Shown here: positions 17,727 through 58,865 of the stretch, piece after piece
Layout: every line of letters begins with the position of its first letter
Numbering within the stretch: position 1 is the first letter of the stretch
Source of the DNA: an uncultured Candidatus Saccharibacteria bacterium
GTDB taxonomy: Bacteria; Patescibacteriota; Minisyncoccia; Phycocordibacterales; JACOZG01
Assembly: GCA_964648765.1 (NCBI GenBank)
Contig: CAZYLF010000001.1
Coordinates: 357,797 to 421,796, forward strand
DNA: 64,000 nucleotides
Direction of reading: 5' to 3'
Notes under the pieces: model-generated
The model's database searches: none
Seen by the model: only the letters and a program-made list of their open reading frames with translations
Told to the model about the DNA's origin: nothing
Translations under genes and position numbers: made by a program

Positions 17727-17760
17727 TTGACACCGGCATTATAGTATGCTAGTTTGATAA
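17727..17760 (+). promoter_or_regulatory. promoter/operator element TTGACA-N5-ATTATAGTATGCTA (member of a recurrent module)
   Basis: TTGACAccggcATTATAGTATGCTAgtttgat. The same 14-mer (14/14) recurs at 58774..58787, and 12/14 at 57866..57879, each 4-5 nt after a TTGACA. Confidence 0.4.
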
Positions 17761-17827
17761 AAGTAAACAAGGAGCAACGTGCTCAGAATTTAAGGAATAG
17801 GATCTTTTAAAAGAGAGAGGAAAACCC

Positions 17828-18211
17828 ATGAACGGGATAAAGAGTCGGGAGGCATTTCCTAAGGTCACTGAGGCAACAAAGGATGGCTGGAAGATGACAG
17901 TTAGCTGCGTGGGGGTATACACCGAATTTGTTCAATATGTGGCGCAAGCCGGAGATCCGAAGGGCACAATAACCCTAGAAGGCCCAAATGGTATCAAAAT
18001 CTCAATTGGAAAGGGTCGGGGAAGTTGCCCATGTTGCGGTGGCTTTGGCAGACAAGTCCCAGTTAATCTAAACAAAGGAAGGGAGTTGGTTGACACCCGA
18101 ATACGAAATGAAATTCGGGACCGTTACAACGTCGAACCAGATCGTGATTTCCTCTTAAGTTTGGGTAAGGAGGCTTTTGCTCCGTATAATCTATACGGCC
18201 ACGAGTTCTAG
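17828..18211 (+). CDS. hypothetical small protein with a CPCCGG Cys-knuckle motif (GC3-rich codon usage)
   Basis: 127 aa with its own promoter module and a strong terminator. Motif GRGSCPCCGGFGRQVPVNL. No TM. Confidence 0.45.
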   Translation: MNGIKSREAFPKVTEATKDGWKMTVSCVGVYTEFVQYVAQAGDPKGTITLEGPNGIKISIGKGRGSCPCCGGFGRQVPVNLNKGRELVDTRIRNEIRDRYNVEPDRDFLLSLGKEAFAPYNLYGHEF

Positions 18212-18222
18212 AATTGAAAATG

Positions 18223-18259
18223 TCGCCCGTGACTGAAAAGTCACGGGCGATTTTTGTTT
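18223..18259 (+). terminator. strong rho-independent terminator (tcgcccgtgact GAAA agtcacgggcga plus TTTTTGTTT)
   Basis: Perfect 12-bp stem, GAAA tetraloop, U-tract. Confidence 0.8.
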
Positions 18260-18362
18260 GAAGTTATCTTTGTTTCTGTTTGACAGTAATATTTAGAACT
18301 GTTAATCTTGAAATCGCTTTTCTTTTTTTTGCTCTTTCTTTTTTTTTGACAGGAGGTCAGGC

Positions 18363-18596
18363 GTGAGTGCAATCAGTTTTGTTGGCTATGTGAAGCTTCC
18401 TATCGGCAGTGACGAAACCGTAGTGGCCATCTTTGACGGCCCAGAGGGACGCTTTCAGCGTACCTCAGCTGGCGTGGCAAAGTTAGCCAGAAGCAATCCC
18501 AAGATTGCGGGGTTGATTGCTGATGTGGTGAAAAGGTGGCCAGATCAATTCGAGAGAAGGGTTCTCGCTAGCTCTCTTCCACGTCACGTGCGTTAG
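18363..18596 (+). CDS. hypothetical small protein (GTG start, SD ACAGGAGG)
   Basis: 77 aa. SD GACAGGAGGTCAGGC lies before GTG 18363. Preceded by a T-rich tract and followed by its own terminator. Confidence 0.4.
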   Translation: MSAISFVGYVKLPIGSDETVVAIFDGPEGRFQRTSAGVAKLARSNPKIAGLIADVVKRWPDQFERRVLASSLPRHVR

Positions 18597-18624
18597 TGTT
18601 TCCTATTTGTCGTAGTTAAATTTT

Positions 18625-18660
18625 CCCCGCGGTCGTTCCACGACCGCGGGGTTTTCATTT
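18625..18660 (+). terminator. strong rho-independent terminator (ccccgcggtcg TTCCA cgaccgcgggg plus TTTTCATTTT)
   Basis: Perfect 11-bp GC stem with a U-tract. Confidence 0.8.
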
Positions 18661-18683
18661 TAAATTTATGCTAAAATAAATTC

Positions 18684-19274
18684 ATGCAAACATTACCTAA
18701 ATTGAAGTTTGAATATAATGCCCTGGAGCCGTACTTTGATGAGGCCACAATGAAGCTTCATCACACCAAGCATCATCAAACATATGTGGATAAGTTGAAT
18801 GAAGCGCTCGCTAAACATCCAGAATTGGCGGAGAAAAATTTAGAAGAACTTCTTGCCGATTTAAATAAAGTGCCGGAAGATATTCGTGGTGCAGTCAGGA
18901 ATCATGGTGGTGGTCATTTTAACCACACTTTTTTCTGGGACATTCTTAAACCAAATTCTGACGGGAAAGTCTCAATGCCGGAAGGGGAGATGTTAGAGAA
19001 AATCAACGCCAGTTTTGAAAGCTTTGAGAATTTCCAAAAGTTGTTTAAGGAAGCAGCACTCGCGCGCTTCGGCAGTGGCTGGGTGTGGCTCGTGGCTGAT
19101 GCAAATGATGAATTTAAAATTATCACCACGGCTAATCAAGACACGCCGCTTGAACTTAAGATGATCCCAATTATTGGTCTCGATGTGTGGGAGCATGCTT
19201 ATTATTTAAAATACCAAAATCGCCGCGCGGAATTTATTGACGCCTTCTTTTATTTGATTGACTGGAGCGTGTGA
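18684..19274 (+). CDS. sodA: Fe/Mn superoxide dismutase
   Basis: 196 aa with metal ligands and signatures: [32 protein letters not shown]. Confidence 0.9.
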
Positions 19275-19293
19275 GAGTGGTAAATTCAAGTTA

Positions 19294-20088
19294 ATGAATA
19301 TTGACGACTTAAATAAAAATCAAATCGTACTCTTGGTTCTTTTAGTTAGCTTTGTTACCTCAATTGCTACTGGCATTGTGACGGTGACGCTTATGGATCA
19401 AGCTCCCGCTGGTGTAACTCAAACTATTAATCGTGTGGTGGAGCGCACTGTGGAACGCGTGGTGCCAGGACCCACTCAAACCGCCACGGTGATTAAGGAG
19501 GTGCCGGTAATAATTACTGAAGAAGATCAGATCATCAGTGCAATTAAAAATTCTGAACCAGCAATTTTAAAGGTTGTTGCGGCAAATGATCCAGAAAAAA
19601 TGATTAGCTCTGGTTTCATTTTTTCTGATGATGGTTTGGTGGCCACCATTATGGACGCCTCCACTTCAAGCTCTAAAAAAATTAAATACCAAGCAATTTT
19701 AGCAAATGGAGACAAAAAGGATCTTGAATTTGTGCGAGAGGTTTCCGGAATTATGGTGATGCGTTTGCCACATACTGAAGTTGCCACAGATAAATTTACG
19801 TTTCTTGAACTAGCCGATGGTGAGCTTTCAGTGGGGCAAACTGTGCTTGCGATTGGCGCGCCACTTTCGTCATCTGAACCAAATATTTCAATTTCTAAAA
19901 TTGGCGCCATTTTAATGGGCAACGCTAGTTCAACACCTGAAATTAAAACTATCGCCGCCAGTCGCGAGAATTTTGGTGGCCCAGTTTTAAATATTAAGGG
20001 CAAAGTGGTGGGCATCAGCAAGGGCGCTGGACTTGCCACCAATTCCCAAGTCATTATGGCCCCACTTGCGAGCGCTGACACCATTTAG
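19294..20088 (+). CDS. membrane-anchored trypsin-fold (HtrA/DegP-like S1C) protein whose catalytic triad appears lost (pseudoprotease)
   Basis: Start is the internal ATG at 19294, read as MNIDDLNKNQIV. TM anchor, then a chymotrypsin-like fold, but the GNSGGP box reads ENFGGPVLN (Ser to Phe). The His (TNxHV to TIMDAS) and Asp positions are also substituted. Confidence 0.5.
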   Translation: MNIDDLNKNQIVLLVLLVSFVTSIATGIVTVTLMDQAPAGVTQTINRVVERTVERVVPGPTQTATVIKEVPVIITEEDQIISAIKNSEPAILKVVAANDPEKMISSGFIFSDDGLVATIMDASTSSSKKIKYQAILANGDKKDLEFVREVSGIMVMRLPHTEVATDKFTFLELADGELSVGQTVLAIGAPLSSSEPNISISKIGAILMGNASSTPEIKTIAASRENFGGPVLNIKGKVVGISKGAGLATNSQVIMAPLASADTI

Positions 20089-20112
20089 CCCTTAGAACGT
20101 TATAATACATAT

Positions 20113-22815
20113 ATGCCACCATTTGGTAATTTTACGTCTAAAGCAAAGGAGGTAATCCGCAAGAGCCAGGAGTTGGCTGTGGAGCGCGGGCAAAATCAAG
20201 TTAGTCCTGTGCATCTTTTGGCGTCTCTATTAATCCAAGATGAGAGTGTGATGGTGTCAATTTTAGATAAGATAGAAGTGGATACTGTGATGCTCACAGA
20301 TTTTGTAATTGAGAGTTTGGATGGCAATGAGTCTGGTGCGGTGATTTCTCCTTCATATCAACTTTATCTCACGCCAGAGCTCGTAAGAATTTTCGACACT
20401 TCAGGCAAAATTGCTTCCAACATGCAGGATGAGTTTGTCTCAACTGAGCATTTAATTTTGGCAATTTTAGAAAGCCCAAATCCAGCTCACGAGATTTTGG
20501 CCCGCTTCCGCGTAAGTAAAGATAAGGTGTGGCGGATTATTCAAGAAATTCGTTCAGGAAAAATTCGTGACGTAGGTGAGAATAAACGCTTACGTTCGAT
20601 TGAAAAGTTTACCAAAAATCTCACCGACCTCGCCCGGCAAGACAAACTTGACCCGGTAATTGGCAGAGAGGAGGAGACTCAAAGAGTGATGGAGATTCTC
20701 TCGCGCCGTACTAAAAATAATCCAATTTTAATTGGTGAAGCCGGCACGGGTAAAACGGCAATCGCTGAAGGCTTGGCAATTAAAATTGCAAAAGGTGATG
20801 TGCCAGAATCTTTACGGGACAAAGATCTAGTTTCTCTGGACCTCGGACTTTTGGTGGCCGGTACTAAATATCGCGGTGAGTTTGAGGAGCGTTTAAAAAA
20901 TGTGTTGAAGGAGGTGGAGAAAGCCCAAAACAAAATTATTTTATTTATCGACGAGATCCATACTATTGTGGGCGCTGGTGCCGCTGAAGGAGCGATTGAT
21001 GCTTCCAACATGCTCAAGCCAGCCTTGGCGCGCGGTGAGCTCCGAGCGATTGGTGCCACCACGCTTAAGGAATATCAAAAGCATATTGAACGTGATCAAG
21101 CACTCACACGCCGTTTTCAACCGGTGCTTGTGGAGGAACCAGCCGTGGATGATGCGGTGGCAATTTTGCGTGGTTTAAAAGATAAGTATGAATCGCATCA
21201 CGGTGTGCATATTACTGATGAGGCGCTTGTGTCTGCGGTTAATCTCTCAAGTCGCTATATTACTGACCGCTTTTTGCCAGACAAGGCTATTGATTTAGTA
21301 GATGAAGCTTGCTCGGCACTGAGATTACAACTTGAAAATAAACCCGCCTCACTTGATGTGGCGCAGACTAAAATTATGCGCTTGGAGGTGGAGCGCGAAG
21401 CACTTAAAAAAGAAATTTTAAGTAAGGATGATAAAAAGTTAAAAAATCGCATCCAGGTGGTGGAGCGAGCCATTGAGGAACTTAAAGAGTCTACTCGTGA
21501 GCTTGAACTGAAGTGGAAAAATGAAAAGCAAGTGATCAATGAAATTAAAACTCTAAAGCTCGAGCTTGAAACTTTGCGCCTCGAGGCCGATCAGGCCGAG
21601 ATGAAGTCCGACCTTACTCGCGCCGCCGAAATTCGCTATGGAAGAATCCCGGCGATAGATAAAGAATTAAAGTTAAAAAAGACCCGTCTTAAAAAACTCC
21701 AAAGCTCGCGCAAAATCTTAAAGGAGGAAATTACTGGTGAAGACATCGCGCGCGTGGTGGCGCGTTGGACCCACATCCCCGTGATGCGCATGCTTGAAGA
21801 AGAGTCAGAAAAATTAGGAAGAATTGAGGATTCGCTCAAATCGCGCGTGCGCGGACAAAATGATGCCGTGCGGAAAATCGCTGAAGCTATTAAACGTTCA
21901 CGCGCCGGCATTTCTGACCCTGATCGCCCAATTGGCTCATTTATTTTGCTCGGACCAACCGGCGTGGGTAAAACTGAATTGGCTAAAACTATCGCCAACT
22001 TTATGTTTGATGATGATAAGTCATTGATCCGTATTGATATGTCGGAATACATGGAGAAGTATTCTGTTTCAAAATTAATTGGTTCACCGCCGGGTTACGT
22101 GGGTCACGATGAGGGTGGTGCGCTCACGGAGGTGGTGCGTCACCGACCTTATTCGGTGTTACTTTTTGACGAAATTGAAAAGGCTCACCCAGAAGTTTTC
22201 AACATTTTACTTCAAGTACTCGATAACGGCCGACTTACCGACTCTAAAGGCCGCGTGGTTAACTTTAAAAACACCATCATTATCCTCACTTCAAACATTG
22301 GGAGCGAGTTTATGAACAAGATGAATAAAATCGGCTTCGTCTCTGATGGCGAGTCGCGGACTCAATATGTGGATGTGAAAACTAAAATTATGGAAAGTTT
22401 AAAAAATCATTTCCGACCAGAATTCTTAAACCGCTTGGATGATGTGATTATTTTTGATCCGCTCTCACAAGACACAATTAAAGAAATTGTGGAACTCCAA
22501 GTTAATTTGGTGCGCAAGCGTTTAGCTGATAAAAATCTGGAGTTAGAAATTACGCCCGAGATGCATGAGTACTTGGCTCGAGAGGGTTACTCGCATGAGT
22601 ATGGGGTGCGACCACTTAAACGCTTGATTCAAAATAAAATTTTAAATCCCGTGGCTGAGTTTATTATTGCTCGCAAAGTTGAGGGTGGGGGATTAATCTC
22701 TGTGGGAGTTAAGGAAGGCCAACCTAATGTTGAAATCAAAAAAGTTTTCACCATTGAGCGCTCTCCGCGTCCTAAAACCAAAAAAGAATCAAATCTCGCT
22801 GGAGTTACGGCTTAA
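20113..22815 (+). CDS. clpB: ClpB disaggregase (AAA+ chaperone with two NBDs and an M-domain)
   Basis: 900 aa. Clp-N repeats. D1 Walker A GEAGTGKT and Walker [10 protein letters not shown]. Long coiled-coil M-domain. D2 Walker A GPTGVGKT and Walker [12 protein letters not shown]. No ClpP-binding IGF loop. Confidence 0.9.
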
Positions 22816-22830
22816 AAAATACAAAATAAA

Positions 22831-22866
22831 AGGGGCACGCAAGAAATTTTCTGCGTACCCCTTTTG
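22831..22866. terminator. bidirectional terminator hairpin between clpB (+) and a convergent lipoprotein gene (-)
   Basis: aggggcacgca...tgcgtacccct stem with one mismatch. Flanked by A-run and T-run. Confidence 0.55.
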
Positions 22867-22884
22867 ACATGAATCAGCCGGTAA

Positions 22885-23187: not shown

Positions 23188-23374
23188 CTTCAATCTCCAT
23201 TTGTATTTAGAACAAGGTCGCAGGTCCATCCTGCTACTGCCCTACATTATAGCAAGTTTAATTAATATGTCAAGTATTAAATTTATCCTTTGTTTGTATG
23301 GTTAAAATGGCTTATAATATTTCTAAATATAAAAGGGAGGCTTATTAATAAGGCGGAGTATTTAGAATATATAA

Positions 23375-26300
23375 ATGAATAAAATGAGCATGAAGGTTTT
23401 GGTCACATTAGTGATAGTTTTGGTGGTGGGTTTTGGGGTTTATTTTGCTTTGCCTTATCTCAATATTTCTCCCTCAGGCGCGTCGGCGCAAGTGGTGCAA
23501 TCTCGACTTGTACCAGAGAAGGTTTCAACCTCCGCGCCAATTTCTGTGGCTATACCAAATTCACTTGAAGCAAATGTAGTAGAGCAAGTAGTTTTTGAAC
23601 CTCAAATTTCTGGTAGATGGCAAGCTGATGAAGCGGGTAAGTTGGTGACGGTAAGCGATTCAAAATCCAAAACCAAAATTTATTATTTCCAACCAAGTAG
23701 AGAACTTGAACTTGGTAAATATTATGCGGCCAAAGTTAATATTTCCGCAGACCAAATCCTCTCAGAGGATTTTTTAGTTGCGCCTGATCCAGAGATTTTG
23801 GCAATTTTACCTGCTGATGAAGAGGTGTTGCCAGAGACTAAAATTACTATTTCATTTAGTCGTCCGATGGTGCCGCTTAGTCGCTTAGATGAATTTGTAA
23901 ATGAATCACTCCCCGTAACCGTTACTCCAATAACTGAAGGGCGCTTTAAATGGATCAACACCAGCACTTTGCAATTTATCCCAAGTGAAAAGTTAATTTC
24001 TTCAGCGCGATATCAAGTTTCAGTGGGTGAGGGGTTGCGGTCAATTGAGGGTTTAGCGGTTAAGCCCAAAAGTGCCACATTTACTACCTACCAATTAGGT
24101 TACCTAAAAACAAATGAAGAATATTTTGGTTCCGGTATTGTGCGCGGGTACAATCAGCCATTTATAATTCGTTTTAATCAGGGTGTGGATTTAGAAAAAA
24201 CTAAACCCAACATTTCAATTGTAAGTAATGGCAAGAGCATACCTTTTTCTGTTTCTTATGCGGAAAAGTTAGTTGATGATAAAAAAATTACTGATTTTAA
24301 TACTCTGGAACTTCATCCTGAGGGTGAGGGTGGCCGTTGGCAAACCAAACAAAGTTATGCGGTTAGGGTAAATAAGGCTTACCCCAAATCTGGTGGGGAT
24401 ATCATTATTGATCAACCTTCAGTTGTAAATTATCAGGTGGGGAGCGTGATCAGCAGCTCAAACGTGGTGTCACCACGCGGCCAAGTGGAGATGGATAGCT
24501 TTGATCCGATGGGTACACTTGAGGTGAGTTTTTATGAAGATATTGATTTGGACAGAAGCAGGATTGCGAGTGCAAAAATTTCAAAGATTGTGTATGGCGA
24601 AAAGTGTGACGAAACTTCACCTCGTAAATGTGTAAAAGTACCAAACAAAAAGCAAATTATTATTTCTTTTAAATCTAATCTTAAACCATCAGAAAAGTTC
24701 GCGGTGACATTTGAAAAAGTCATTTCAGCAAATGGCGATAATTTAGGTGATGAAGCCGAGATAATAAATTTAAAGGTTTATGATCCGTTAGTTATTTATA
24801 GTATTAGTAGCGGTGATCATCTTGGGCACTTTACTGTTTGTTCAAATAATCCACTTAAGGGCCCCGCCGACGACGGCACGGGCAGTGAATTTAATATCGT
24901 ACCTTCATTTGAGACAAGTAACTTTAATGGATCTTATTTGGTGAGGAGTCAGCAGAATCAGATATGTAAGGTTGGCCAATATTCTAGTACAGTTTCTGGT
25001 TATCTCGTTGGCAGTCAAAAGTATGATGTGAGCGCAAAAATTAAAGACGTATTTGGCGGTGAGGTAAGTGGCACTTACACCTTTACTTCTCGAGCCGTAA
25101 GAGAGAGTGATTATGTAATTTTGAGTCATCAACAAAGTGGGGTGGTCACCGTGCCTAGCCGCACTAAACTCACTTTTTCTGCTAAATATTTACCGTCAGT
25201 GTCGGTTAGTGTTTGCCGTTTAAGCCCAAGCAATTTTAATCAAGCCCGAGATAGTTATGATGAATCAATCAATCTCCCTTGTGATGAAAAAATTAATAAA
25301 GTAATCCCACTTGTGGTTAATAATCCCGAGAGTCGATTTTTCACTGTTGATCTTAAAGATTATTTCCCAAATGTAATTGGTAATTATTTGGTCACCGTGG
25401 ATAGCTCAATTCCTATTAGTGTCAAAAATTGGCAAAGAAGCGCTCGCACTTTGGTGTCGGTAACCAATTTAATTGTAACTGAAAAGCGGATTAACCCGAG
25501 CGAAAAGGGTGAGTACGATTCTTCAATTCTTAGTGGCGCCCAATTGGGTGAGCTTAAAAATCTTTATTGGGTAATTGATGCAAACACTCGTGAGCCGGTG
25601 GTGGGGGCGATTGTGGGACTTTACCGTAAGGGAGCTTTAGTAAGTAGTTCAGTCACCGATCTTAAAGGTTTGGCATTTATCTCTCCAGTGGCGGGTGCCG
25701 ACATGACGGTGATAACTAGCGGCCAAGACAAAGTTGTTCTCTCAAGCAATTCCTCGTCGCTAAGTTGGGCTTCAAAAGCGGTAAACAATAAACATTATTA
25801 TCTTTACACTGATAAGCCAATTTATCGCCCTGGGCAAGAAGTAAATATAAAAGGATTTTACCGACTTGGTTACGATGGTAATTATCAGGTGCCAGCAGGT
25901 CAAACTGTGCCGCTAAAAATTTCTGATTCTAGCGGAAAAATTATCAAAGAAGAGAATCTTCAAACAAATAGTTACGGGGCGATTGCCACCAATCTTAAGA
26001 TTGAGAGTTCTGCATCGCTTGGGAGTTATCGAGCTTGCGTGGGGTATCAATGTGCCACGTTTGAAGTTCTAAATTACGCTCCAGCCGCGTTTAGGGTAGC
26101 GCTTAGCACAGACGGTGATGAATTTACATTTAGTAATCCACCAAAAGTAAATCTTAAGGCGGACTATTACTTTGGTGTGCCAGTATCGGGAGCTACAGTG
26201 GATTATCATTTAAGTAGTCAGTATTACTACTTTGATAAATTTACTGGTGAGTATTTTAGTTTCAACAATATTTTTGAACAGGATGAAAATGGTTATGGCG

Positions 26301-29300
26301 AGTATTATTACTACGGTGATAGTTATATCGGAAACGGCAAAGCAGTGCTGGGTGAAAACGGTGAAGTAATAATTGAACCTAAAATAAAAGTAGGGGAACT
26401 TAATAATCCAAGCCAAAGCAAAATTATTATTCTTGACGCGACAGTTAAAAATCAAACAGGTCGCTCTATTAGCTCTCAGAAATCATACATTCTCCACGCT
26501 GCACCAATTTATTTGGGTAGTAAAGTTGAGGAAAATTTTGCTCCAGCCGGGTCACCAATTTCACTGAAAGTGAAAAGCGTAAATACTTCTGGTGAGCCAG
26601 TAGCGCTTGGAGGTATTGAGGCAGAAGTTTACAAAATAAATTGGGTGGAGGAGAAGCGTCCAGCCGGCAACGGTCAAGATTATTCTATTTGGAAGCGGAC
26701 AAGAGAGCTGGTAAAAACAGAAAACTTCAGAACCAACAACGCCGGTGACGCTAGCGTCAGTTTAGTGGTGAGCGGTGAAGGGGAGTATGAAGTGGATGTA
26801 AAGACGGGTGGCAATCAGGCGGTGGGTAGTCGCACGTGGTTTTATCTTTACGGCAATCAAAGCGTGAACGTGCGTGGTGGCGATGATACCTCGCTTAAAA
26901 TTAAAGCTGAAAAGCGCGATTTAAATCTAGGGGAAAAGGGTAAGGTGGTGATGGAGATTCCTGAAGGTAAAGCCAAAGCCTTGGTTACGATTGAGCGTGG
27001 CAGAGTGTTTACTTATGAAGTTTTGGATATTAAAGGCAACCTTGCTAACTACGAGTTCCCTGTGGTGGCTGATTATTATCCAAACGTGCGCTTGAGTGTG
27101 GTTTTGTACGCGCCTGATCGCGAGGTGCGATATGGGGCTTATGACTTTAAAGTGGCCAGCAAACAAAAAAATCTTAAAATTAGTCTCACTACAGATAAAA
27201 AAGTTTATAAACCGGGTGATGATGTGGTGCTAGTGGTAAATACCAGTGATGAGTTTGGTCGCCCACAAGCCGCCGAGCTCTCACTGGCCGTGGTAGATAT
27301 GAGCGTGCTTGCACTCCGTGGTAATCCTAAAAAAACTCCTGTAGATCAATTATATGGCAATTTACCACTTACTGTTGCCACTTACTCTAACTTTAAAAAT
27401 TTACTAAAGTACATTGATCCAAGTGGTGGAGAGGGCAAGGGTGGTAGCGGTAATGATCCTAATTCTGGCAAGAGGCGCGGGGTGTTTAAGGAGGTGGCAC
27501 TTTGGAAGCCTAGTTTAATCACCGATAGTGCCGGCCGAGCCAGTGTGACCTTTAAACTTCCAGACAATTTAACCACTTGGCAAGTGGAGGCAGTGGGCAT
27601 GACTCTCGACACTAAAGTTGGTGCTAGTTATCAAGAGTTTAGTACTAAAAAGCTTTTGATGGTCACGCCACTTAAACCACGCTTTGTGCTCCCTGGTGAT
27701 GAATTTGCAATTGGTGCTCAGGTGTTTAACCAAAGTGAGAACTCACTTAATCTTGATGTCACACTGGCAATCCCAGGGTTAGAGATTACTGATAAAGCCA
27801 ACAAGAGTGTTTCAGTAAAAAAAGGTGAGACCAAAACAATTTATTGGAATACTAAAGTCCCCACAACTATTAAACCCGGGAATCTAACTTACTCACTTAG
27901 TGCGATTGGCGGAGGGTTAAGTGATATTGTGGACGATGAGTTAAAGGTTAATGCCAATACTTTGTACGAGGTCACGGCTACGGCTGGCAAAACCACTTCT
28001 CGTACTACTGAATTAGTCTACGTGCCCGATACAATTTTGCGCGATCAAGGAGAATTGGTGATTGAAAGTTCTGCCACGTTAGCTGTGTATCTTGCGCCAG
28101 CACTTGAATACTTCAACAATTATCCATATCGAAATGCCGAGAATTTAGGTAGTCGCCTAAATACTTTGGCCTTAATTTCTGAAGTGGCTTCTGTGCCTAA
28201 TCTTAAAACTTGGAGTACTGGTGACGTTAAATTGCAAATCGCTGAAGATCTTAAATCCCTTTATAACTTACAAAATTATGATGGAGGTTTTCGTTTCTGG
28301 GCGGAGAGTCGGTATTCTGACACTTGGGCAACGTTTGAGGCAGTTTCAACATTTGCCCAATTAAGTCGTGCTGGTTACCCAGTTGATAATGGTGTATGGA
28401 CCAGAGCAAACAATTATCTTCTTGAGCAGTATCTTAGAACCGATGTAACTTACACCGATCCTGATTTACTCGAATTTGTTAAGGCCTTGTTTACGCAAGA
28501 AACCCACCGCGGTAATAACAGACTTACGAAAGATTTAACCAGAATCTCGAGAGCGTTAATTGATGATAAAAAGTCTTCAACCGCTCACTTGCTTACAGTG
28601 TCGGAAATCTTAAATCGCTACGGCATTTTAGGCAGTGAAGCTAGAAAAGTGGACTCAATGCTAAAGAATAGGATGGTAATCGACTCGCGCGGAACCTTCT
28701 TAGATCTTGGGCCTAGGGGATTATATTCTGGATCGGCTATTGCCAATACCGCTCGATACATTTCGCTTTTAGTAATGAAAAAAGAAAGTGAGAATGAGTT
28801 AATAAATCTCTTACGTTGGTTAACCGCGTCTCGCGATAAAGAGGGCGCCTGGGGTGGGACAAAAAATTCTCAATTAGCCGTGAAGGCGATTGTGGAATAT
28901 CTCAAATGGCAACCAGAGACCAACGCTCGCTTTACGTTAGAAAATCGGCTTAACGATCAGGCGGTGATGAACTTCAACTTTGAGCCAAACACTATTCTCT
29001 CGCAAATTAAAAAAGTTTTCCCACTTTCGGAGCTTAAGTTTGGCGATCTTAATACGGTAAGTATTGGCAAAAAGACCCCAGCGGAAATTGGTAACACTTA
29101 TTACAGCATGGTGTTTAAGTATTTCCTACCCGCAGATCAAGCTCTAGCTCGCGACGAGGGCATGTCGATTAGCCGGAACTTCTTTGCTTTAGACGATGAA
29201 GAAAACACTACGCCTCTCACCGAGGCCAAGGTGGGTGAGGTGATGAGAGCACAACTTGAGATCGTGGTGCCAGTAACCAGACGTCTTGTGGCCATTGAGG

Positions 29301-29596
29301 ACTTCATTCCGGCTGGACTAGAAATTATTGATACGAGTTTGAGCACTGAGGATCAAACACTTAACGATGAGCTTAGCCAGTTTAGACGTGATCAGTTTTC
29401 CCCATCGCACCGCGAGTGGCGAGACGATCGAGCCTTCCTCTTTAAAGAAAGATTGAGACCTGGAACTTATAAGTTTGAGTATTTGGTCAGAGCGTTAGTG
29501 CCAGGTAATTACTTACATTTGCCTGCGCAAATTTGGGAAATGGATAATCCAGAAAACTTTGGTCGCTCAAATGCTTCACGCTTCAGCGTAAAATAA
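23375..29596 (+). CDS. bacterial alpha-2-macroglobulin family protein (MG-domain-rich, apparently thioester-less)
   Basis: 2073 aa. Signal/anchor, many Ig-like MG domains, bait-like region, and LPDNLTTWQVEAVGMT (A2M signature). The thioester site aligns as YPYRNAENLG where YPYGCxEQ is expected (about 28131..28160), so Cys and Gln are absent. Confidence 0.8.
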   Translation: MNKMSMKVLVTLVIVLVVGFGVYFALPYLNISPSGASAQVVQSRLVPEKVSTSAPISVAIPNSLEANVVEQVVFEPQISGRWQADEAGKLVTVSDSKSKTKIYYFQPSRELELGKYYAAKVNISADQILSEDFLVAPDPEILAILPADEEVLPETKITISFSRPMVPLSRLDEFVNESLPVTVTPITEGRFKWINTSTLQFIPSEKLISSARYQVSVGEGLRSIEGLAVKPKSATFTTYQLGYLKTNEEYFGSGIVRGYNQPFIIRFNQGVDLEKTKPNISIVSNGKSIPFSVSYAEKLVDDKKITDFNTLELHPEGEGGRWQTKQSYAVRVNKAYPKSGGDIIIDQPSVVNYQVGSVISSSNVVSPRGQVEMDSFDPMGTLEVSFYEDIDLDRSRIASAKISKIVYGEKCDETSPRKCVKVPNKKQIIISFKSNLKPSEKFAVTFEKVISANGDNLGDEAEIINLKVYDPLVIYSISSGDHLGHFTVCSNNPLKGPADDGTGSEFNIVPSFETSNFNGSYLVRSQQNQICKVGQYSSTVSGYLVGSQKYDVSAKIKDVFGGEVSGTYTFTSRAVRESDYVILSHQQSGVVTVPSRTKLTFSAKYLPSVSVSVCRLSPSNFNQARDSYDESINLPCDEKINKVIPLVVNNPESRFFTVDLKDYFPNVIGNYLVTVDSSIPISVKNWQRSARTLVSVTNLIVTEKRINPSEKGEYDSSILSGAQLGELKNLYWVIDANTREPVVGAIVGLYRKGALVSSSVTDLKGLAFISPVAGADMTVITSGQDKVVLSSNSSSLSWASKAVNNKHYYLYTDKPIYRPGQEVNIKGFYRLGYDGNYQVPAGQTVPLKISDSSGKIIKEENLQTNSYGAIATNLKIESSASLGSYRACVGYQCATFEVLNYAPAAFRVALSTDGDEFTFSNPPKVNLKADYYFGVPVSGATVDYHLSSQYYYFDKFTGEYFSFNNIFEQDENGYGEYYYYGDSYIGNGKAVLGENGEVIIEPKIKVGELNNPSQSKIIILDATVKNQTGRSISSQKSYILHAAPIYLGSKVEENFAPAGSPISLKVKSVNTSGEPVALGGIEAEVYKINWVEEKRPAGNGQDYSIWKRTRELVKTENFRTNNAGDASVSLVVSGEGEYEVDVKTGGNQAVGSRTWFYLYGNQSVNVRGGDDTSLKIKAEKRDLNLGEKGKVVMEIPEGKAKALVTIERGRVFTYEVLDIKGNLANYEFPVVADYYPNVRLSVVLYAPDREVRYGAYDFKVASKQKNLKISLTTDKKVYKPGDDVVLVVNTSDEFGRPQAAELSLAVVDMSVLALRGNPKKTPVDQLYGNLPLTVATYSNFKNLLKYIDPSGGEGKGGSGNDPNSGKRRGVFKEVALWKPSLITDSAGRASVTFKLPDNLTTWQVEAVGMTLDTKVGASYQEFSTKKLLMVTPLKPRFVLPGDEFAIGAQVFNQSENSLNLDVTLAIPGLEITDKANKSVSVKKGETKTIYWNTKVPTTIKPGNLTYSLSAIGGGLSDIVDDELKVNANTLYEVTATAGKTTSRTTELVYVPDTILRDQGELVIESSATLAVYLAPALEYFNNYPYRNAENLGSRLNTLALISEVASVPNLKTWSTGDVKLQIAEDLKSLYNLQNYDGGFRFWAESRYSDTWATFEAVSTFAQLSRAGYPVDNGVWTRANNYLLEQYLRTDVTYTDPDLLEFVKALFTQETHRGNNRLTKDLTRISRALIDDKKSSTAHLLTVSEILNRYGILGSEARKVDSMLKNRMVIDSRGTFLDLGPRGLYSGSAIANTARYISLLVMKKESENELINLLRWLTASRDKEGAWGGTKNSQLAVKAIVEYLKWQPETNARFTLENRLNDQAVMNFNFEPNTILSQIKKVFPLSELKFGDLNTVSIGKKTPAEIGNTYYSMVFKYFLPADQALARDEGMSISRNFFALDDEENTTPLTEAKVGEVMRAQLEIVVPVTRRLVAIEDFIPAGLEIIDTSLSTEDQTLNDELSQFRRDQFSPSHREWRDDRAFLFKERLRPGTYKFEYLVRALVPGNYLHLPAQIWEMDNPENFGRSNASRFSVK

Positions 29597-35707: not shown

Positions 35708-35995
35708 CTATGATCGTGGAGAAGTAACCGCAATATACATGGCTGCTAATGTGATCGCCTGGATAACCAATGCGGTGATAGGAATGATGGTCACGGACAT
35801 CATTATTCCCTTGAGTGATTGTGGTTGGCCCAGCGGGTATCCGCTCATTGTCCAAGCCAAGCTTAGTGCAGAGTCTGCGGTAGCAAACAGAAAAAGAAAG
35901 GTTGGAAATGCTACCGCAACGATCATCAGGTCGACAGTGATCCATGCCCACAAGGGCAGATCTGTTGGAATCAACATTGCTGGATCCCAGTTCAT
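35708..35995 (-). CDS. small polytopic membrane protein (95 aa, GC3-rich codon usage)
   Basis: Three predicted helices (LWAWITVDLMIVAVAFPTFLFLF, IMMSVTIIPITALVIQAITLAAMYIAV). SD AGAGGAGG before ATG 35995. Leader contains ACTTGAG plus a small hairpin. Confidence 0.45.
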   Translation of the reverse strand: MNWDPAMLIPTDLPLWAWITVDLMIVAVAFPTFLFLFATADSALSLAWTMSGYPLGQPQSLKGIMMSVTIIPITALVIQAITLAAMYIAVTSPRS

Positions 35996-36078
35996 GATAT
36001 TACCTCCTCTGTGCTTTTCGCACTCAAGTTGACATTCAATAGACCAGATTTACTGCTGAGACACTAGCACACTCAACC

Positions 36079-38292
36079 TTACTTTGTCAACTTGTGCGGA
36101 TTATGATTTGGGCAAAGTTTATTGGAACAACGTTCAGGGATAGTTTTAGTGCCCTCCATCATTAGGGAATTACACATCGGGCAGATGTTGCCAGTGGGTT
36201 TGGTTTTAATAATATTTTTACACTTCGGGTAATTAGAACAACCATAAAATAGTCCATACTTCCCACGCTTCTCGATCATCGAACCAACGTTACACAGCGG
36301 GCACTTCACGCCCGTATCACTCGCGCCACCGACGCCGCCATTCTCATCTTTTTTAATATATTTACATTTTGGATAATTGCCGCAAGAAGTAAATTTGCCG
36401 TAGCGACCCATGCGCTCCACCAATTTACCGCCGCAATCTGGGCAGATTTCGCCCGTCTCTTTTGGCCCTTCCATTTTCTCACCACTATCCGTGCGAGCGC
36501 CCAAGCAATCGGGGAATTTAGTACAACTCATGAAGCGACCATTCTTACCCAGCTTCCAGATCATTGAGTCGCTGCAGATTGGGCAGGGGAATTCTTTCGG
36601 CGCATCACCAAGGTTAGAAATTTTGGGAATTTTCTTTTTTGAAAGTACGGCTTTATGGAACGGTCCGTAAAAGTTTTTTAAAGATTTAACATATTCCATT
36701 TTGCCGGCGGCAATCTCATCCAGCTCATCTTCCATCTGCGCGGTGAAGGTGTCGCTTATGTAATTGGCAAAGTGCTCGGAGAGGAAGTCCGAGACCACGA
36801 TGCCCGTGTCGGTGGCCTTTAAACTCCGTTGAATTTTCTCTACATATCCGCGGTCAATAATTGTTTTAATAATTGAGGCGTAAGTAGACGGGCGACCAAT
36901 GCCGCGCTTCTCGAGTTCCTTCACTAAACCGGCTTCGCTGTAGCGATTGGGTGGAGAGGTTTCTTTGCCTTCAGAATTTATGGTTACAAGTTTAAGTGGC
37001 TCACCCTCGGCAAGCTTAGCAGGCAACTCCACTTCCTCACCGCGCGCAGCAGGGTCGGCTTTAAGCCAACCGTCAAACGTGACGCGGTAGCCGTTGGAGG
37101 TGAAGCTTGCCCCGTGTTCCGCTTCAGCGGAATTTACGGGGTCGGCCCATTTTGTTGTAACTTTAGTTTTCAAAACCTTCGCATCCGCCATCTGACTCGC
37201 GAGCGTGCGGCGCCAGATTAATTGATACAACTTTTCTTCGCCAGTGCCATTGCCAGCGCGTCGGACGTTTGGATGTGTAGGGCGAATAGCCTCGTGCGCT
37301 TCTTGAGCGTTTTTACTCCGCGTGGCGTACACCTTCACGCTCTCAGCATAATTATCACCAAAATCTTTCTTGGCGATTGCCACCATCTCGCTTGCAGCCG
37401 CGTTATTTAAATTAGTACTATCAGTACGCATGTAGGTGATGTGACCAGCTTCATAAAGTTTCTGGGCCAGGCGCATGGTTTGTGACGGTGAGAGTCCGAG
37501 CCTGGTGGAAGCTACTTGTTGTAAAGTTGAAGTTGTAAACGGCGCGCGAGATTTGCGAGCCATTTCAGTCGCTTCAATTTTGCCCACTTGCCAATTAGCT
37601 TTTTCACCAGCTTCCACAATTTTTTTAGCTTCGTCTTCAGTTTTTGGTTCGACAGTAGAGGTGAAAATAATTTTTTCATTCCGCGGGGTTTCCAGTTCGG
37701 CGGTGATCACCCAGAATTGCTCGGGGACGAAGTTCTGAATTTCCTTTTCGCGTTCCACTAAGATGCGGAGCGCTGGCGACTGCACGCGCCCGGCCGAGAG
37801 ACCGTAGCGGAGTTTGGTCCAAATGAGACCCGAGAGATCGTAGCCGAAGAGGCGATCAAGCACGCGTCTAGCTTCTTGCGCGGTTTTCAAATTATCATCA
37901 ATGGCGCGCGGGTGAGTGAGGGCCTCAATAATTGCGTCCTTAGTAATCTCGTGGAAGACCACGCGCTGGGGTTTTTTAAGTCCCACGGCTTCAGCAATGT
38001 GCCAGGCAATTGCTTCACCTTCGCGGTCAGGGTCGGTGGCGAGTAGCACAGCTGAAGCGCCCTTGCTAGCCGTTTTTAAATCACTTACTACTTTCTCTTT
38101 ACCCTTCGAGATTTCATAATGCGGCACAAAGCCCGCCTCGATGTCGATGGCGTTTTTATTTGATTTAGGTAAATCGCGAATGTGACCCACGGAGGCCATC
38201 ACTTTATATTCACTACCTAAATATTTGCCGATCGTCTTAGCCTTGGCCGGCGACTCCACGATCAATAATTTTTTCCCTGTGCTTGTGCTCAT
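36079..38292 (-). CDS. topA: DNA topoisomerase I with C-terminal zinc-ribbon repeats
   Basis: 737 aa. TOPRIM start KKLLIVESPAKAKTIGKYLG. Active-site Tyr region. Four C-terminal Cx2C...Cx2C ribbons (CPICSDSM, CPDCGGKL, CPLCNVGS, CPMCNSLM). Confidence 0.9.
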   Translation of the reverse strand: MSTSTGKKLLIVESPAKAKTIGKYLGSEYKVMASVGHIRDLPKSNKNAIDIEAGFVPHYEISKGKEKVVSDLKTASKGASAVLLATDPDREGEAIAWHIAEAVGLKKPQRVVFHEITKDAIIEALTHPRAIDDNLKTAQEARRVLDRLFGYDLSGLIWTKLRYGLSAGRVQSPALRILVEREKEIQNFVPEQFWVITAELETPRNEKIIFTSTVEPKTEDEAKKIVEAGEKANWQVGKIEATEMARKSRAPFTTSTLQQVASTRLGLSPSQTMRLAQKLYEAGHITYMRTDSTNLNNAAASEMVAIAKKDFGDNYAESVKVYATRSKNAQEAHEAIRPTHPNVRRAGNGTGEEKLYQLIWRRTLASQMADAKVLKTKVTTKWADPVNSAEAEHGASFTSNGYRVTFDGWLKADPAARGEEVELPAKLAEGEPLKLVTINSEGKETSPPNRYSEAGLVKELEKRGIGRPSTYASIIKTIIDRGYVEKIQRSLKATDTGIVVSDFLSEHFANYISDTFTAQMEDELDEIAAGKMEYVKSLKNFYGPFHKAVLSKKKIPKISNLGDAPKEFPCPICSDSMIWKLGKNGRFMSCTKFPDCLGARTDSGEKMEGPKETGEICPDCGGKLVERMGRYGKFTSCGNYPKCKYIKKDENGGVGGASDTGVKCPLCNVGSMIEKRGKYGLFYGCSNYPKCKNIIKTKPTGNICPMCNSLMMEGTKTIPERCSNKLCPNHNPHKLTK

Positions 38293-52668: not shown

Positions 52669-52704
52669 GGGTCGTCGCAACGTGCGACGACCCGCTTTTT
52701 TTTA
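52669..52704 (+). terminator. strong rho-independent terminator (gggtcgtcgca ACG tgcgacgaccc plus T9) ending the cassette
   Basis: 11-bp GC stem followed by nine T. The -10 TATATAAT of dnaX follows directly. Confidence 0.8.
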
Positions 52705-52716
52705 TATAATCAAGTA

Positions 52717-53760: not shown

Positions 53761-53761
53761 G

Positions 53762-56043: not shown

Positions 56044-56073
56044 TTTTATATTAAAAATTTAAAAAATAATTTT

Positions 56074-56457
56074 ATGGATGCAGAAGCAAAAAAATACAAA
56101 GTTTTAATTATTGAGGATGATGAATTTTTACGTTCGCTTACCGCTAAACGCTTAGAGAAGGAGGGTTATGCAGTGGAGGTGGGTGTGGATGGCGAGAGCG
56201 GTGTGGCTCAAGCTGAAAGCAAAAAGCCAGATTTAATTTTACTCGACCTCTTACTCCCAGGACTTGATGGTTTTGAGGTTCTTAAGCGTGTGCGCGCCAA
56301 CGATGCTCTTAAGGAGACCCCGGTAATCATCTTTTCAAACCTTGGACAAAAAGAGGACATTGAACGAGCTAAGGGTTTGGGAGCTAACGACTTTTTAATT
56401 AAAGCCAACTTTACTCTTGATGATGTGGTCGGAAAGATCAAATCTTTTCTTAAGTAG
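56074..56457 (+). CDS. stand-alone response-regulator receiver domain (CheY-like, no output domain)
   Basis: 127 aa: KVLIIEDDEFLRSL, phospho-acceptor region LILLDLLLPGLDG, conserved T/K region IIFSNLGQ...K. Confidence 0.8.
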   Translation: MDAEAKKYKVLIIEDDEFLRSLTAKRLEKEGYAVEVGVDGESGVAQAESKKPDLILLDLLLPGLDGFEVLKRVRANDALKETPVIIFSNLGQKEDIERAKGLGANDFLIKANFTLDDVVGKIKSFLK

Positions 56458-56460
56458 TTT

Positions 56461-57429
56461 ATGGCATTGATTCGAGTTGGTGTGGTGCGAGGAGGACCAG
56501 GACACGAGTATGACGTGTCGCTTAAAACTGGACAAAGTGTGCTTAAGCATCTCAATTCGGAAAAGTATCAATCCAAAGATATTTTGATTACTCGCGATGG
56601 CACTTGGCATTTAAATGGCATGGAGACTACGCCGGATCGTTTGGTGCCGCAGGTGGATGTTTTTTTTAACGCTATGCATGGTGAGTATGGAGAGGATGGT
56701 CAGGTGCAAGCGTTGTTTGACGACCTTAGCGTGCCTTACACTGGGTCTGGGCGCTTGGCTTCAAGTTTGGCGATGAACAAACAACTCACCAAAGAGGCGC
56801 TTGAAGTGGCGGGGTTTAAAATGGCGCCAGGGCAAGTGGTGAGTAGGGAGGATGATATCCCGGTGAAGATTCAGCAAATCTTTTTTAAGATGGCACCGCC
56901 GTGGATTGTGAAGCCGCTAGATTCTGGTTCATCGGTCGGGCTCGGGTATGCACTCACCGTGAGTCAGTTGGCGGAGGCGATTATTGATTCATTAAATTAT
57001 TCGGGCCAAGTTTTAGTTGAGCGGTATATCAGAGGTAAAGAGGCCACTTGCGGCGTGGTAGATAACTTCAGAAATCATGAGGTGTATGCTTTGCCACCGA
57101 TTGAGATAAGAAAGCCGGCCGGGCACAAGGTGTGGAATTATGAGTTTAAATATAATGGCCAAACGGCAGAAATTTGCCCTGGCAATTTTACAGATGCGGA
57201 AAAGCGCGAACTTGCCGAAGCCGCAATTAAGATTCATCAAATTTTAGGTTTGAGGCATTACTCACGTTCGGACTTTATTGTGACGCCCAAAGGCATTTAT
57301 TTTTTGGAAGTTAACACCTTGCCGGGCATGACTTCAGAATCCCTTTTGCCAAAAGCCCTCGACGCTGTGGGTTGCTCATACCCGCAATTCCTTGATCACG
57401 TTATTTCTCTCGCGCTTAGTAAAAATTAA
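56461..57429 (+). CDS. ddl: D-alanine--D-alanine ligase
   Basis: 322 aa ATP-grasp enzyme: RVGVVRGGPGHEYDVSL, PVDVFFNAMHGEYGEDG, C-terminal EVNTLPGMTSESL. Confidence 0.85.
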   Translation: MALIRVGVVRGGPGHEYDVSLKTGQSVLKHLNSEKYQSKDILITRDGTWHLNGMETTPDRLVPQVDVFFNAMHGEYGEDGQVQALFDDLSVPYTGSGRLASSLAMNKQLTKEALEVAGFKMAPGQVVSREDDIPVKIQQIFFKMAPPWIVKPLDSGSSVGLGYALTVSQLAEAIIDSLNYSGQVLVERYIRGKEATCGVVDNFRNHEVYALPPIEIRKPAGHKVWNYEFKYNGQTAEICPGNFTDAEKRELAEAAIKIHQILGLRHYSRSDFIVTPKGIYFLEVNTLPGMTSESLLPKALDAVGCSYPQFLDHVISLALSKN

Positions 57430-57432
57430 GGA

Positions 57433-57759
57433 ATGTCGCTTATTAGCAAAAAATGTGTAGTGTGTGAGATGGGCGGGAGTCCACTTGCAAAAGGTGAGGT
57501 GGATAAATTTTTGAGTGAGGTAAAAAATTGGCAGGTGGCCGATGATTATATAAAGATTAAGAGAGAGTGGAAGTTTAAAAATTTTAAAGAGGCCCTAAAT
57601 TTCACCAATCAGGTAGGAAATTTGGCCGAAGATGAGGGACATCATCCAGATATCGCTCTTGGTTGGGGGTATGTCAAAATTGACCTGACTACTCATGCGG
57701 TTAAGGGTCTTTCAGAAAACGACTTTATTTTAGCCGCAAAAATTGATAGGCTTGAATAG
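57433..57759 (+). CDS. pterin-4a-carbinolamine dehydratase (PCD/DCoH)
   Basis: 108 aa with the signature EDEGHHPDIALGWGYVKIDLTTHAV. Confidence 0.8.
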   Translation: MSLISKKCVVCEMGGSPLAKGEVDKFLSEVKNWQVADDYIKIKREWKFKNFKEALNFTNQVGNLAEDEGHHPDIALGWGYVKIDLTTHAVKGLSENDFILAAKIDRLE

Positions 57760-57771
57760 TAGCCCATATAT

Positions 57772-57844
57772 GGGCCGTTAGCTCATTTGGTAGAGCACCA
57801 CATTTGCAATGTGGGGGTGATCGGTTCGAATCCGATACGGTCCA
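57772..57844 (+). tRNA. tRNA-Ala (anticodon UGC)
   Basis: GGGCCGT acceptor with the G3:U70 Ala identity pair. Anticodon stem-loop CCACA-TTTGCAA-TGTGG. T-arm ATCGG-TTCGAAT-CCGAT. Confidence 0.9.
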
Positions 57845-57856
57845 CTCGATTCACTC

Positions 57857-57957
57857 TTGACAAAATATGATAGTATGATACGTTAGCATAGGATTAACTT
57901 GAGCTTTGTGGCTCAAGGAAAGTACATTTCAAAACTAAACAAAGCAAGGAGAAAATT
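57857..57957 (+). promoter_or_regulatory. recurrent promoter/operator plus leader module, copy A (TTGACA-N4-ATGATAGTATGATA ... AGGATTAACTTGAGCTTTGTGGCTCAAG hairpin ... AAGGAG)
   Basis: Shares the TTGACA + ATnATAGTATGmTA core with 17727 and 58764. Shares a 25-nt leader block (57891..57915) with 58797..58822. Confidence 0.45.
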
Positions 57958-58692
57958 ATGGCAACAGATGGCCCCACTCCGACTCCATGTAACCCCGACA
58001 TTTTTAAGAAAGGCAGAGGTGTTTGTGTTGTCCGTGGTAGTTCCAACGCTGTAGAGCGTTGGGTACGGTCCGTCGCTAAGAAAGCTAATGCTCAAGTTGA
58101 TTGGCATTACAGTGGAGGAATGGCGAGTGTCCTTCATCTTGGTGACGATGAAAGTCGTCAGCGAGTTTTGAACGCTATCCACGAGCTCAAGGGCAAACTC
58201 GACGGACACATTATTAGCGTTGACGGCCCCGCTCTTTACAGGGATGGAGTCGAAGGTTCAAATGTTACCGCTGCGGTCGTTCGCAAAGACAATGGGGAAA
58301 TTGTCCTTGTTGATCCGGAAGTCATTGCAGTAATTGGTGCCGTTGGTAAGTACAACTGCAAAAATACTCTTGAGATTAACTCTGATCGCGTTGATCATTT
58401 CAAGCAACGATTGACGGAGCGCGGTATGACTGCCGACGAGGCGGTAATCGTACTTTTAAACGTTGACGATGTTCACGGTGGTCCACTTGCTGACGTACTG
58501 ATGCCCGGTCACGACTGGCAGGAAATACGTGACAGGGGTGAAGTTCCTTTCGCCAGAGGACTTGCCGTGCGGAATGGCATTCAGCAAGCACTTGGTATCT
58601 TCGATGAGGATGCTGCGATGAAGCTCAAGGGTATGACTGAGGTGGCTGTTGTGGTTGTAGACCATGGAGTCGCCGAGGTGTTTGCGGCCTAG
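57958..58692 (+). CDS. hypothetical acidic soluble protein (244 aa, GC3-rich)
   Basis: ATG with SD AAGGAG. No TM or recognisable catalytic motif. Residues ...VLLNVDDVHGGPLADVLMPGHDWQEIRD.... Has its own terminator. Confidence 0.45.
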   Translation: MATDGPTPTPCNPDIFKKGRGVCVVRGSSNAVERWVRSVAKKANAQVDWHYSGGMASVLHLGDDESRQRVLNAIHELKGKLDGHIISVDGPALYRDGVEGSNVTAAVVRKDNGEIVLVDPEVIAVIGAVGKYNCKNTLEINSDRVDHFKQRLTERGMTADEAVIVLLNVDDVHGGPLADVLMPGHDWQEIRDRGEVPFARGLAVRNGIQQALGIFDEDAAMKLKGMTEVAVVVVDHGVAEVFAA

Positions 58693-58722
58693 ATGTTAAG
58701 TCCTTACAATTTTGTACACACA

Positions 58723-58759
58723 AGCGCACGACCCTCGGGGACGTGCGCTTTTTTCTTTT
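58723..58759 (+). terminator. rho-independent terminator (agcgcacg ... cgtgcgct plus T6CT4)
   Basis: 8-bp outer stem with an inner ccc/ggg extension, followed by TTTTTTCTTTT. Confidence 0.75.
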
Positions 58760-58763
58760 ACTA

Positions 58764-58865
58764 TTGACAAAGTATTATAGTATGCTACGATAGGGCAGGA
58801 TTAACTTGAGCTTTGTGGCTCTAAAAAGTACATTTTCATTTGGAACTCGAAAAAAGGAGACTTGC
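58764..58865 (+). promoter_or_regulatory. recurrent promoter/operator plus leader module, copy B (TTGACA-N4-ATTATAGTATGCTA ... AGGATTAACTTGAGCTTTGTGGCTC ... AAAGGAGA)
   Basis: Its 14-mer is identical to 17738..17751. The leader block is identical to copy A over about 25 nt. Confidence 0.45.

Follow-up and report, generated by a model that had tools for sequence, protein, structure and literature searches.

We analysed a 64,000-nucleotide stretch of contig CAZYLF010000001.1 from an uncultured Candidatus Saccharibacteria bacterium (hereafter the window), in which the start codons of three genes, A, B and C, each lie downstream of a TTGACA hexamer and a copy or near-copy of one 14-nucleotide (nt) sequence (sites A, B and C). 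The three sites are likely to be ordinary promoters of the housekeeping (sigma-70-type) kind, belonging to the -35/TGn class, those of A and B being duplicates, with the leader of gene A as the conserved leader RNA of a protein family. Judged by its sequence, the A leader appears to be a conserved, structured cis-regulatory RNA that occupies the orthologous position in many genomes and has no Rfam family, gene-specific leaders themselves being a known kind of element.

Leader A (57890..57957, + strand) is predicted to begin at ~57890-57892. It can form an 8-bp hairpin, CUUGAGCU-UUGU-GGCUCAAG (57898-57917), with a folding energy of -12 kcal/mol, which is followed by a single-stranded stretch, GUACAUUUCAAAAC (57922-57935), and by the ribosome-binding site (RBS) AAGGAG (57946-57951). 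Is this arrangement shared by relatives of gene A? To answer this question, we fetched 124 loci and read the upstream regions. A common 5' untranslated region (UTR) precedes both long-form and short-form genes of the family in Paceibacteria-type genomes; its consensus comprises a putative start at ~AGGAUU, a hairpin of 5-10 bp with a loop of 3-7 nt, a linker of 0-8 nt, the motif GCACAUUCCCAAAC and, 5-25 nt further on, the RBS. The stem itself is spelled differently from lineage to lineage, as UUGAGCUA/UGGCUCAA, AUCUAGGCA/UGCUUAGAU, ACCUAAGC/GCUUGGGU, UGCCACGA/UCGUGGUA, UGGCGCG/CGCGCUA or AAUCGAGCUA/UAGCUCGAUU.

For 24 of 29 sequences, no more than 5% of shuffles formed an equally good hairpin at that position. 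In the model-fitted alignment, which like the hand-built one discussed below leans towards structure, 90.7% of the cells pair and seven of the eight pairs show double changes; none of 500 shuffles reached this level, and slid controls stayed at or below 40%. Thus the hairpin that the sequence-only reading had noticed in copy A is real, 8 bp long and evolutionarily conserved, and its stems covary across homologous loci. G-U pairs make up 25 of 183 pairs, and the sense fold is more stable than the antisense fold in 22 of 25 cases (p = 3e-5); because of these G-U pairs and the better folding of the sense strand, we take the element to be an RNA rather than a DNA palindrome. A mild bias towards structure is also seen in the first 45 nt after non-family promoters (mean z -0.63, p = 0.003), as compared with -1.71 for the family leaders. 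Using RNAalifold, we recovered the hairpin only, and found no conserved helix that sequesters the RBS.

The single-stranded motif is conserved as well. Its identity between loci is 76% (85% for the core ACAUUCC), compared with 52% at synonymous third positions of adjacent genes (34% for diverged pairs), and a motif score of at least 10/14 is found upstream of 35% of the family genes versus 1.3% of other genes. We built a covariance model (R1) from 15 leaders (alignment A4) without any window sequence. Within the window R1 matched two leaders only, that of A (57889-57935; 30.2 bits, E 1e-5) and that of B (58796-58841; 18 bits, E 0.02); the leaders of genes C and D were not matched even with filters off. 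In 508 kb of loci R1 returned family-gene leaders only, besides one marginal match (L024:6135-6183, E 0.11) that lies in coding-like sequence and was dismissed as noise. Viral contigs scanned with GCACATTCCCAAAC yielded random 14-mer matches with R1 scores of 15-23 bits and no full motif, and were likewise set aside. With Rfam 15, only transfer RNAs (tRNAs) reached the gathering score in the window and nothing relevant appeared at E <= 10 in 57840-58900; a literature search found no description of the leader motif. In the lineages of the Patescibacteria, few structured regulatory RNAs seem to have been documented.

Upstream of the leader, we listed every TTGACA in the window together with its downstream sequence and ran a targeted promoter scan. 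Promoter A (57857..57884, + strand) consists of the -35 element TTGACA (57857-57862), a 16-nt spacer ending in TATGa, with the TG at 57876-57877, and a weak -10 hexamer, TACGTT (57879-57884). Promoter B (58764..58791, + strand), a duplicate of promoter A, has TTGACA, a 16-nt spacer containing ATTATAGTATGc and the -10 hexamer TACGAT (58786-58791), a 10/12 match with TG, while promoter C (17727..17755, + strand) has TTGACA, a 17-nt spacer with the TG at 17747-17748 and the -10 hexamer TAGTTT (17750-17755). The window holds about 11 intergenic sites with TTGACA-N16-18-TAnnnT and a TG two bases before the hexamer, including 804(-), 5202(-), 5600(-), 17727, 23273(-), 36090(-), 51348, 57857, 58764 and 60445. 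We extended the scan to 460 kb of low-GC DNA, made up of the window and related Patescibacteria loci, and found TTGACN-N13-15-TGnTAnnnT 92 times (78 unique) compared with 4.2 in composition-preserving shuffles, an enrichment of about 22-fold. This architecture is the stereotyped promoter form of the present genome and is shared by its relatives. Of the two columns before the TG, the one at -5 from the hexamer start (-17 in conventional numbering) holds T in 68% of sites and the one at -4 (conventionally -16) holds A or G in 87%; the TG and TAnnnT columns of sites A-C are those conserved in the 78 unique promoters. The conserved leader begins where a start 6-8 nt past the -10 element would fall, which is consistent with the promoter call.

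The '-17 TRTG -14' motif has been described for Gram-positive bacteria (Helmann 1995; Voskuil & Chambliss; reviewed in PMC2613000), the TRTG extended -10 element is established and the -35/TGn class tolerates weak -10 hexamers (PMC2613000). The sites described here are like these known sigma-70 promoters in their TTGACA, the 16-17 nt spacer, the TRTG next to the -10 element and a TG that offsets weak hexamers. They are unlike them in their Patescibacteria host, in a hexamer pared down to TAnnnT and in the frequent C at -13 (TGCTA). Our literature search found no promoter studies of Patescibacteria, and the pattern TTGACA-N16/17 with TRTGnTAnnnT is usable for promoter annotation in the uncultivated, reduced genomes of this group. 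Two other promoter assignments were rejected: TATAGT as a -10 element has its TTGACA only 7-8 nt away, and the minus-strand promoter suggested by the TATAAT in the reverse complement of the 14-mer has no good -35 element and would give antisense transcripts only. We also observed that the 8-mer TAGGGCAG directly follows the -10 element, and is itself followed by CAGGAT, at both promoter B (58790-58800) and the promoter at 23273(-) (23235-23245, minus strand), which drives a lipoprotein-like gene; the TAGGGCAG-CAGGAT context may be a preferred start site. In some orthologous family promoters the -10 element is flanked by an inverted repeat, GCTATCC-N8-GGATAGC, or ACGTTCTT..AAGGTCGT in L057 (~2400-2430), further cases being L084 (~2385-2410) and L005 (~2905-2930); the repeat is a possible operator or DNA hairpin and is absent from the window copies.

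The 14-mer that drew attention to these promoters, ATTATAGTATGCTA, is present in exact copies at 17738-17751 (site C) and 58774-58787 (site B), as the sequence-only reading had it. Site A carries a variant with two mismatches, ATGATAGTATGATA, whose existence was correctly noted; it lies at 57867-57880, one base away from the 57866..57879 originally given. The gap after TTGACA is 4-5 nt at all three sites, again as claimed, and the distance from the end of the 14-mer to the ATG (17828, 57958 and 58866) is 77-79 nt, within the 70-100 nt that had been proposed. At up to two mismatches, the window contains three copies compared with 0.28 expected, and none of 100 shuffles reached three; at up to three mismatches, there are four copies compared with 5.0 expected, thus no further copies beyond chance. 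The 14-mer can be divided into ATKATAG, an AT-rich part of the spacer with unconserved columns, TATG, which is the TRTG element, a C or A, and TA, the start of the hexamer. Because its 3' half is the extended -10 element, the 14-mer is not wholly spacer and not an alternative to the -10, contrary to the earlier view that the block sits in the spacer rather than in a -10 element. Indeed, in the closest relatives, where protein identity is 79-81%, the orthologous promoters (...gaatagcatccaTATGCTAGGAT and ...aaactcttaccaTATGCTAGGAT) keep TATGCTA, not ATKATAG, and ATKATAG was not found in the 124 related loci.

Sites A and B are linked by more than the 14-mer. The 25-mer AGGATTAACTTGAGCTTTGTGGCTC, recognized beforehand as a shared leader block, occurs exactly at 57890-57914 and 58797-58821 (0 expected), and belongs to a longer direct repeat with copies 907 nt apart, detected as 65 nt at 86% by repeat search and as 80 nt at 85% by blastn (57850-57929 versus 58757-58835). 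The repeat covers the promoter and the first ~40 nt of the 5' UTR. Downstream of gene A, we read an intrinsic terminator from the sequence (58724..58756, + strand; GCGCACG...CGTGCGC followed by a T run). Leader B (58797..58865, + strand) then contains a hairpin of 5 bp (58808-58821), a motif decayed to GUACAUUUUCAUUU (58828-58841) and the RBS AAGGAG (58854-58859). Compared with leader A, its stem has shrunk from 8 to 5 bp, the motif retains 8 of 14 positions, the R1 score is 18 bits instead of 30, and the z-score of the fold is +0.4. Gene B (58866..59249, + strand) is an orphan open reading frame (ORF) of 127 amino acids (aa) with a terminator at ~59270-59305. Its protein matched only itself among 5.8 billion proteins, no homologue of gene B was found beside family genes in the 124 other loci, and no similarity was seen between B and A, between B and C, or between the B region and the family. 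In the simplest scenario, expression signals were duplicated in this lineage and came to lie before a new or fast-evolving ORF. The B copy would then place an orphan gene under an A-type promoter and leader, the latter a decaying copy, a concrete case of a new gene gaining expression signals.

Could the three sites nevertheless reflect common regulation? The sequence-only reading proposed that ATKATAGTATGMTA is a repressor operator overlapping the promoter, which would co-regulate the dispersed small genes A, B, C and possibly D. In favour of this proposal are the identity of B and C at 14/14 positions although the gap from the -35 element and the downstream sequence differ (the gap reads ccggc in one case and aagt in the other, unlike in sequence and number), the palindromic core TAGTA/TGCTA, in which four of five positions match, and the similar lengths of the 5' UTRs (66-68 nt). 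However, the general promoter consensus TRTGnTA accounts for half of the block and also for half of this weak dyad; the spacer part is unconserved at the orthologous promoters (~80% protein identity) and in the related loci, as described above, and site A deviates at 2/14 positions. No regulator gene adjoins A, B or C, including a helix-turn-helix (HTH) regulator of the kind that the sequence-only reading had suggested looking for. As A and B are paralogous copies, the independent evidence is one 7-mer coincidence, roughly p = 0.05 in the window. Moreover, two promoters on the minus strand, 11844-11873 and 13820-13849 (ACTTGCTTTTTTA...TATGATATAAT), are identical at 26/30 positions from -35 to -10 and precede two different genes (starts at ~11812 and ~13752); because this second, unrelated pair exists, we take stereotyped or copied promoters to be a recurring trait and not the mark of one regulon. 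We therefore consider a repressor operator unlikely. Even less can be said for non-regulatory repeats derived from a small mobile or repetitive element, similar to miniature inverted-repeat transposable elements (MITEs) or repetitive extragenic palindromic (REP) sequences, a reading to which we give very little credence. A and B do form an 80-nt repeat, and family genes occur in variable contexts, often beside tRNA genes, but the 64 kb contain just these two copies, and neither terminal inverted repeats nor target duplications accompany them; the repeat spans the -35 to the 5' UTR, an RBS, an ATG and a terminator follow each copy, and dozens of genomes have the leader in the orthologous place.

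The leader hairpin itself admits two further explanations. As an inverted repeat at about +9 to +28, it could act at the level of DNA, as a palindromic operator downstream of the start; we find this highly improbable, as the stem sequences differ wholly between lineages while the pairing is kept, and as the G-U pairs would turn into A-C mismatches in the opposite strand, besides the better folding of the sense strand. The other explanation is a small riboswitch in the style of preQ1-I, in which a ligand-binding hairpin and tail would control translation. The A-family leader is indeed compact, its hairpin being followed by an invariant single-stranded tail that lies just before the RBS; its sequence is strongly conserved beyond structure, and it is tied to one gene family. 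Like preQ1-I (RF00522), it combines a small hairpin with a conserved tail near the RBS; unlike preQ1-I, it has no model match, even at E <= 10, no pseudoknot covariation, a variable loop and unrelated downstream genes. A loop that is free to vary in sequence and length (3-7 nt) is unusual for a ligand pocket, and the gene product has no known metabolic role. We searched for a loop-tail pseudoknot and for pairing between the tail and the Shine-Dalgarno sequence and found no consistent covariation for either. One possible loop-tail covariation was observed, a loop UGG with a tail CCA in L065 versus a loop UGU with a tail ACA in L066; it was unseen in other lineages and is thus not general. Taken together, such a riboswitch seems improbable to us. 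An attenuator or intrinsic terminator was rejected: the sequence after the hairpin is A-rich with no U tract, and no + strand terminator was called in the leaders.

Several points weigh against our preferred interpretation of ordinary promoters and a conserved leader RNA. The assignment of the promoters and of the +1 position follows from consensus, and the function of the leader is a prediction from sequence for a gene family without known activity. The motif is present before only about a third of the family genes. In the hand-built structural alignment (A6), which gave a covariation score of 0.754 versus 0.185, the hairpins were chosen for each sequence, so that 100% pairing results by construction. 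Furthermore, the identity of B and C at 14/14 positions is unlikely for independent promoters, and ATTATAG may have an extra cause, such as promoter copying or a lineage-specific factor. Estimated from the column frequencies of the 460-kb scan, the chance that two independent TGnTA promoters are alike at all 14 positions is ~2e-5 per pair, which amounts to ~1e-3 over the ~12 promoters of the window and to the order of 0.4 over a genome with ~200 promoters; for the spacer 7-mer match alone, allowing for window pairs and register slack, it is ~0.05. In our view site C is a strong promoter of the standard type, and its spacer agrees with that of B by chance or through promoter copying; we deem it unlikely that a lineage-specific factor acts on the shared spacer.

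How might the A leader work? It probably acts after transcription. We propose that the 5'-proximal hairpin would shield the 5' end of the mRNA, like known stem-loop stabilisers, and that the invariant C/A-rich single strand would be the binding site for a trans-acting factor that tunes translation or decay. Stem-loops at the 5' terminus, such as those of the Escherichia coli ompA 5' UTR and of the Bacillus subtilis aprE and ermC leaders, block 5'-end-dependent attack by RNase E or RNase J. The A-type leader resembles them in that a stable hairpin lies no more than ~10 nt from the predicted 5' end and the RBS after it is open; unlike a generic stabiliser, it adds an invariant 14-nt single-stranded motif that is specific to one gene family. 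The most economical candidate for the trans-acting factor would be the encoded family protein itself, which would amount to autoregulation, because the motif travels with the C-terminal domain shared by the family. Autoregulatory protein-binding leaders are known from the ribosomal proteins L20 and S15 and from the thrS operator. As in these systems, the A-type leader is a short structured 5' UTR element that stands before one protein family only, in many genomes; unlike them, it has no mimicry target or Rfam family, and RNA binding by the encoded protein is our conjecture. More tentatively, hairpin and GCACAUUCCCAAAC might constitute a new class of specific, sensor-type cis-regulatory RNA in Patescibacteria that is read by a protein, for example the encoded one, or by a small ligand; we think this possible, though less probable than its contrary. 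If true, the leader would control a widespread, highly conserved and often relocated family, and copy B would represent an orphan gene drawn into the circuit by duplication. A gene-specific leader also offers a handle on the biology of the family, since it suggests post-transcriptional control and can serve as bait in pull-downs.

Gene A (57958..58692, + strand) encodes a protein of 244 aa, in which a ferredoxin-like domain at the N-terminus precedes a C-terminal domain of ~140 aa that is widespread. A word-indexed search returned 565 homologues and an exhaustive search 1343 clusters at 50% identity (E<=1e-3), most of which are stand-alone proteins of ~150 aa equivalent to residues 100-244 of gene A; named sources include Paceibacterota, Azambacteria, Wildermuthbacteria, Yonathbacteria and others. 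Pfam gave no match for ten family representatives, and a sequence profile search of the PDB with the gene A protein found no relative. The AlphaFold model (predicted local distance difference test, pLDDT, 86) shows the N-terminal ferredoxin-like domain, and Foldseek searches of the PDB and BFVD found no significant fold match, with generic ferredoxin-like matches to the N-terminal domain only. Gene A thus belongs to an uncharacterised family that is widespread in Patescibacteria in long (244 aa) and short (~150 aa) forms, and is not one of the small accessory proteins that the sequence-only reading had supposed; B and C are orphans. The neighbours of A, B and C comprise genes for IscS-like, DUF4446, IF-2, superoxide dismutase (SOD), protease, ClpB, Ddl, pterin dehydratase and DUF4349 proteins and for a stand-alone receiver domain.

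The surroundings of the family genes vary. A tRNA gene ends at most 500 nt upstream of the family gene in 13 of 63 unique loci, compared with 4.7% of positions, with varied tRNA identities (L002, L017, L021, L030, L050, L057, L061, L066, L071, L083, L086, L090 and L105; in the window, 57772-57958). Other contexts include a Shedu SduA_C domain with an HTH (L246) and M14 peptidases with LAGLIDADG (L247/L248). This suggests that the family gene relocates or sits in variable hotspots. Within the window, a large serine recombinase ORF of 510 aa (60896-62428, minus strand; Resolvase, Recombinase and Zn_ribbon_recom domains) overlaps tRNA-Val (60885-60960, + strand) with its 3' end and may mark the boundary of an integrated element; the stretch from tRNA-Ala to this tRNA-Val holds A, B, a DUF4349 gene and an ORF of 115 aa. 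At L078, the leader and gene start are found at mirrored positions of the two strands (377+, 1904-), which looks like a palindromic assembly artefact.

Site C shares the promoter core alone with A and B, through chance or promoter stereotypy. Leader C (17761..17827, + strand) contains a 5-bp hairpin, GAGCA-ACG-UGCUC (17772-17784), that is unrelated to the A/B leader motif, and its alignment with the A and B leaders gave z-scores of 0.4-1.2, which indicate no similarity and speak against common ancestry. Gene C (17828..18211, + strand; terminator 18222-18251) is an orphan ORF whose protein, like that of gene B, matched only itself among 5.8 billion proteins. Both orphans, though mutually unrelated, are exactly 127 aa long, and each has a strong promoter, a good RBS and its own terminator; A, B and C are each a self-contained unit of promoter, leader, RBS, ORF and terminator. 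Gene D (35708-35995, 95 aa), with its promoter and leader at 35996..36090 on the minus strand (TTGACA at 36090; TGc TAGTGT), has a leader unlike those of A and B apart from the 7-mer ACTTGAG. The link that had been drawn from this 7-mer is due to chance, as it occurs 15 times in the window. The dispersed regulon consequently dissolves: the leader is common to A and B only, which are an adjacent local duplication within a larger repeat, an outcome that the sequence-only reading had itself named as counting against its view, whereas C and D lack it, and what stands of the proposed regulatory module is a promoter plus a 5' leader, not an operator-defined regulon. Nor are the ORFs rich in G+C at third codon positions (GC3), as had been stated: the values are 0.46 for A, 0.41 for B, 0.47 for C and 0.51 for D, compared with 0.43 +/- 0.075 in 34 background genes. 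Searches of A, B, C and D with Pfam, NCBIfam, PHROGs and PADLOC returned nothing except a noise match of C to SduA (0.036).

Two further features of the window were observed. At 8319-9663, four paralogous ORFs of ~100 aa follow each other in tandem (8319-8618, 8615-8920, 8946-9248 and 9292-9663) and hold repeats of 92-159 nt with 62-77% identity that encode hydrophobic stretches. A single ORF of 2073 aa extends over 23375-29596.

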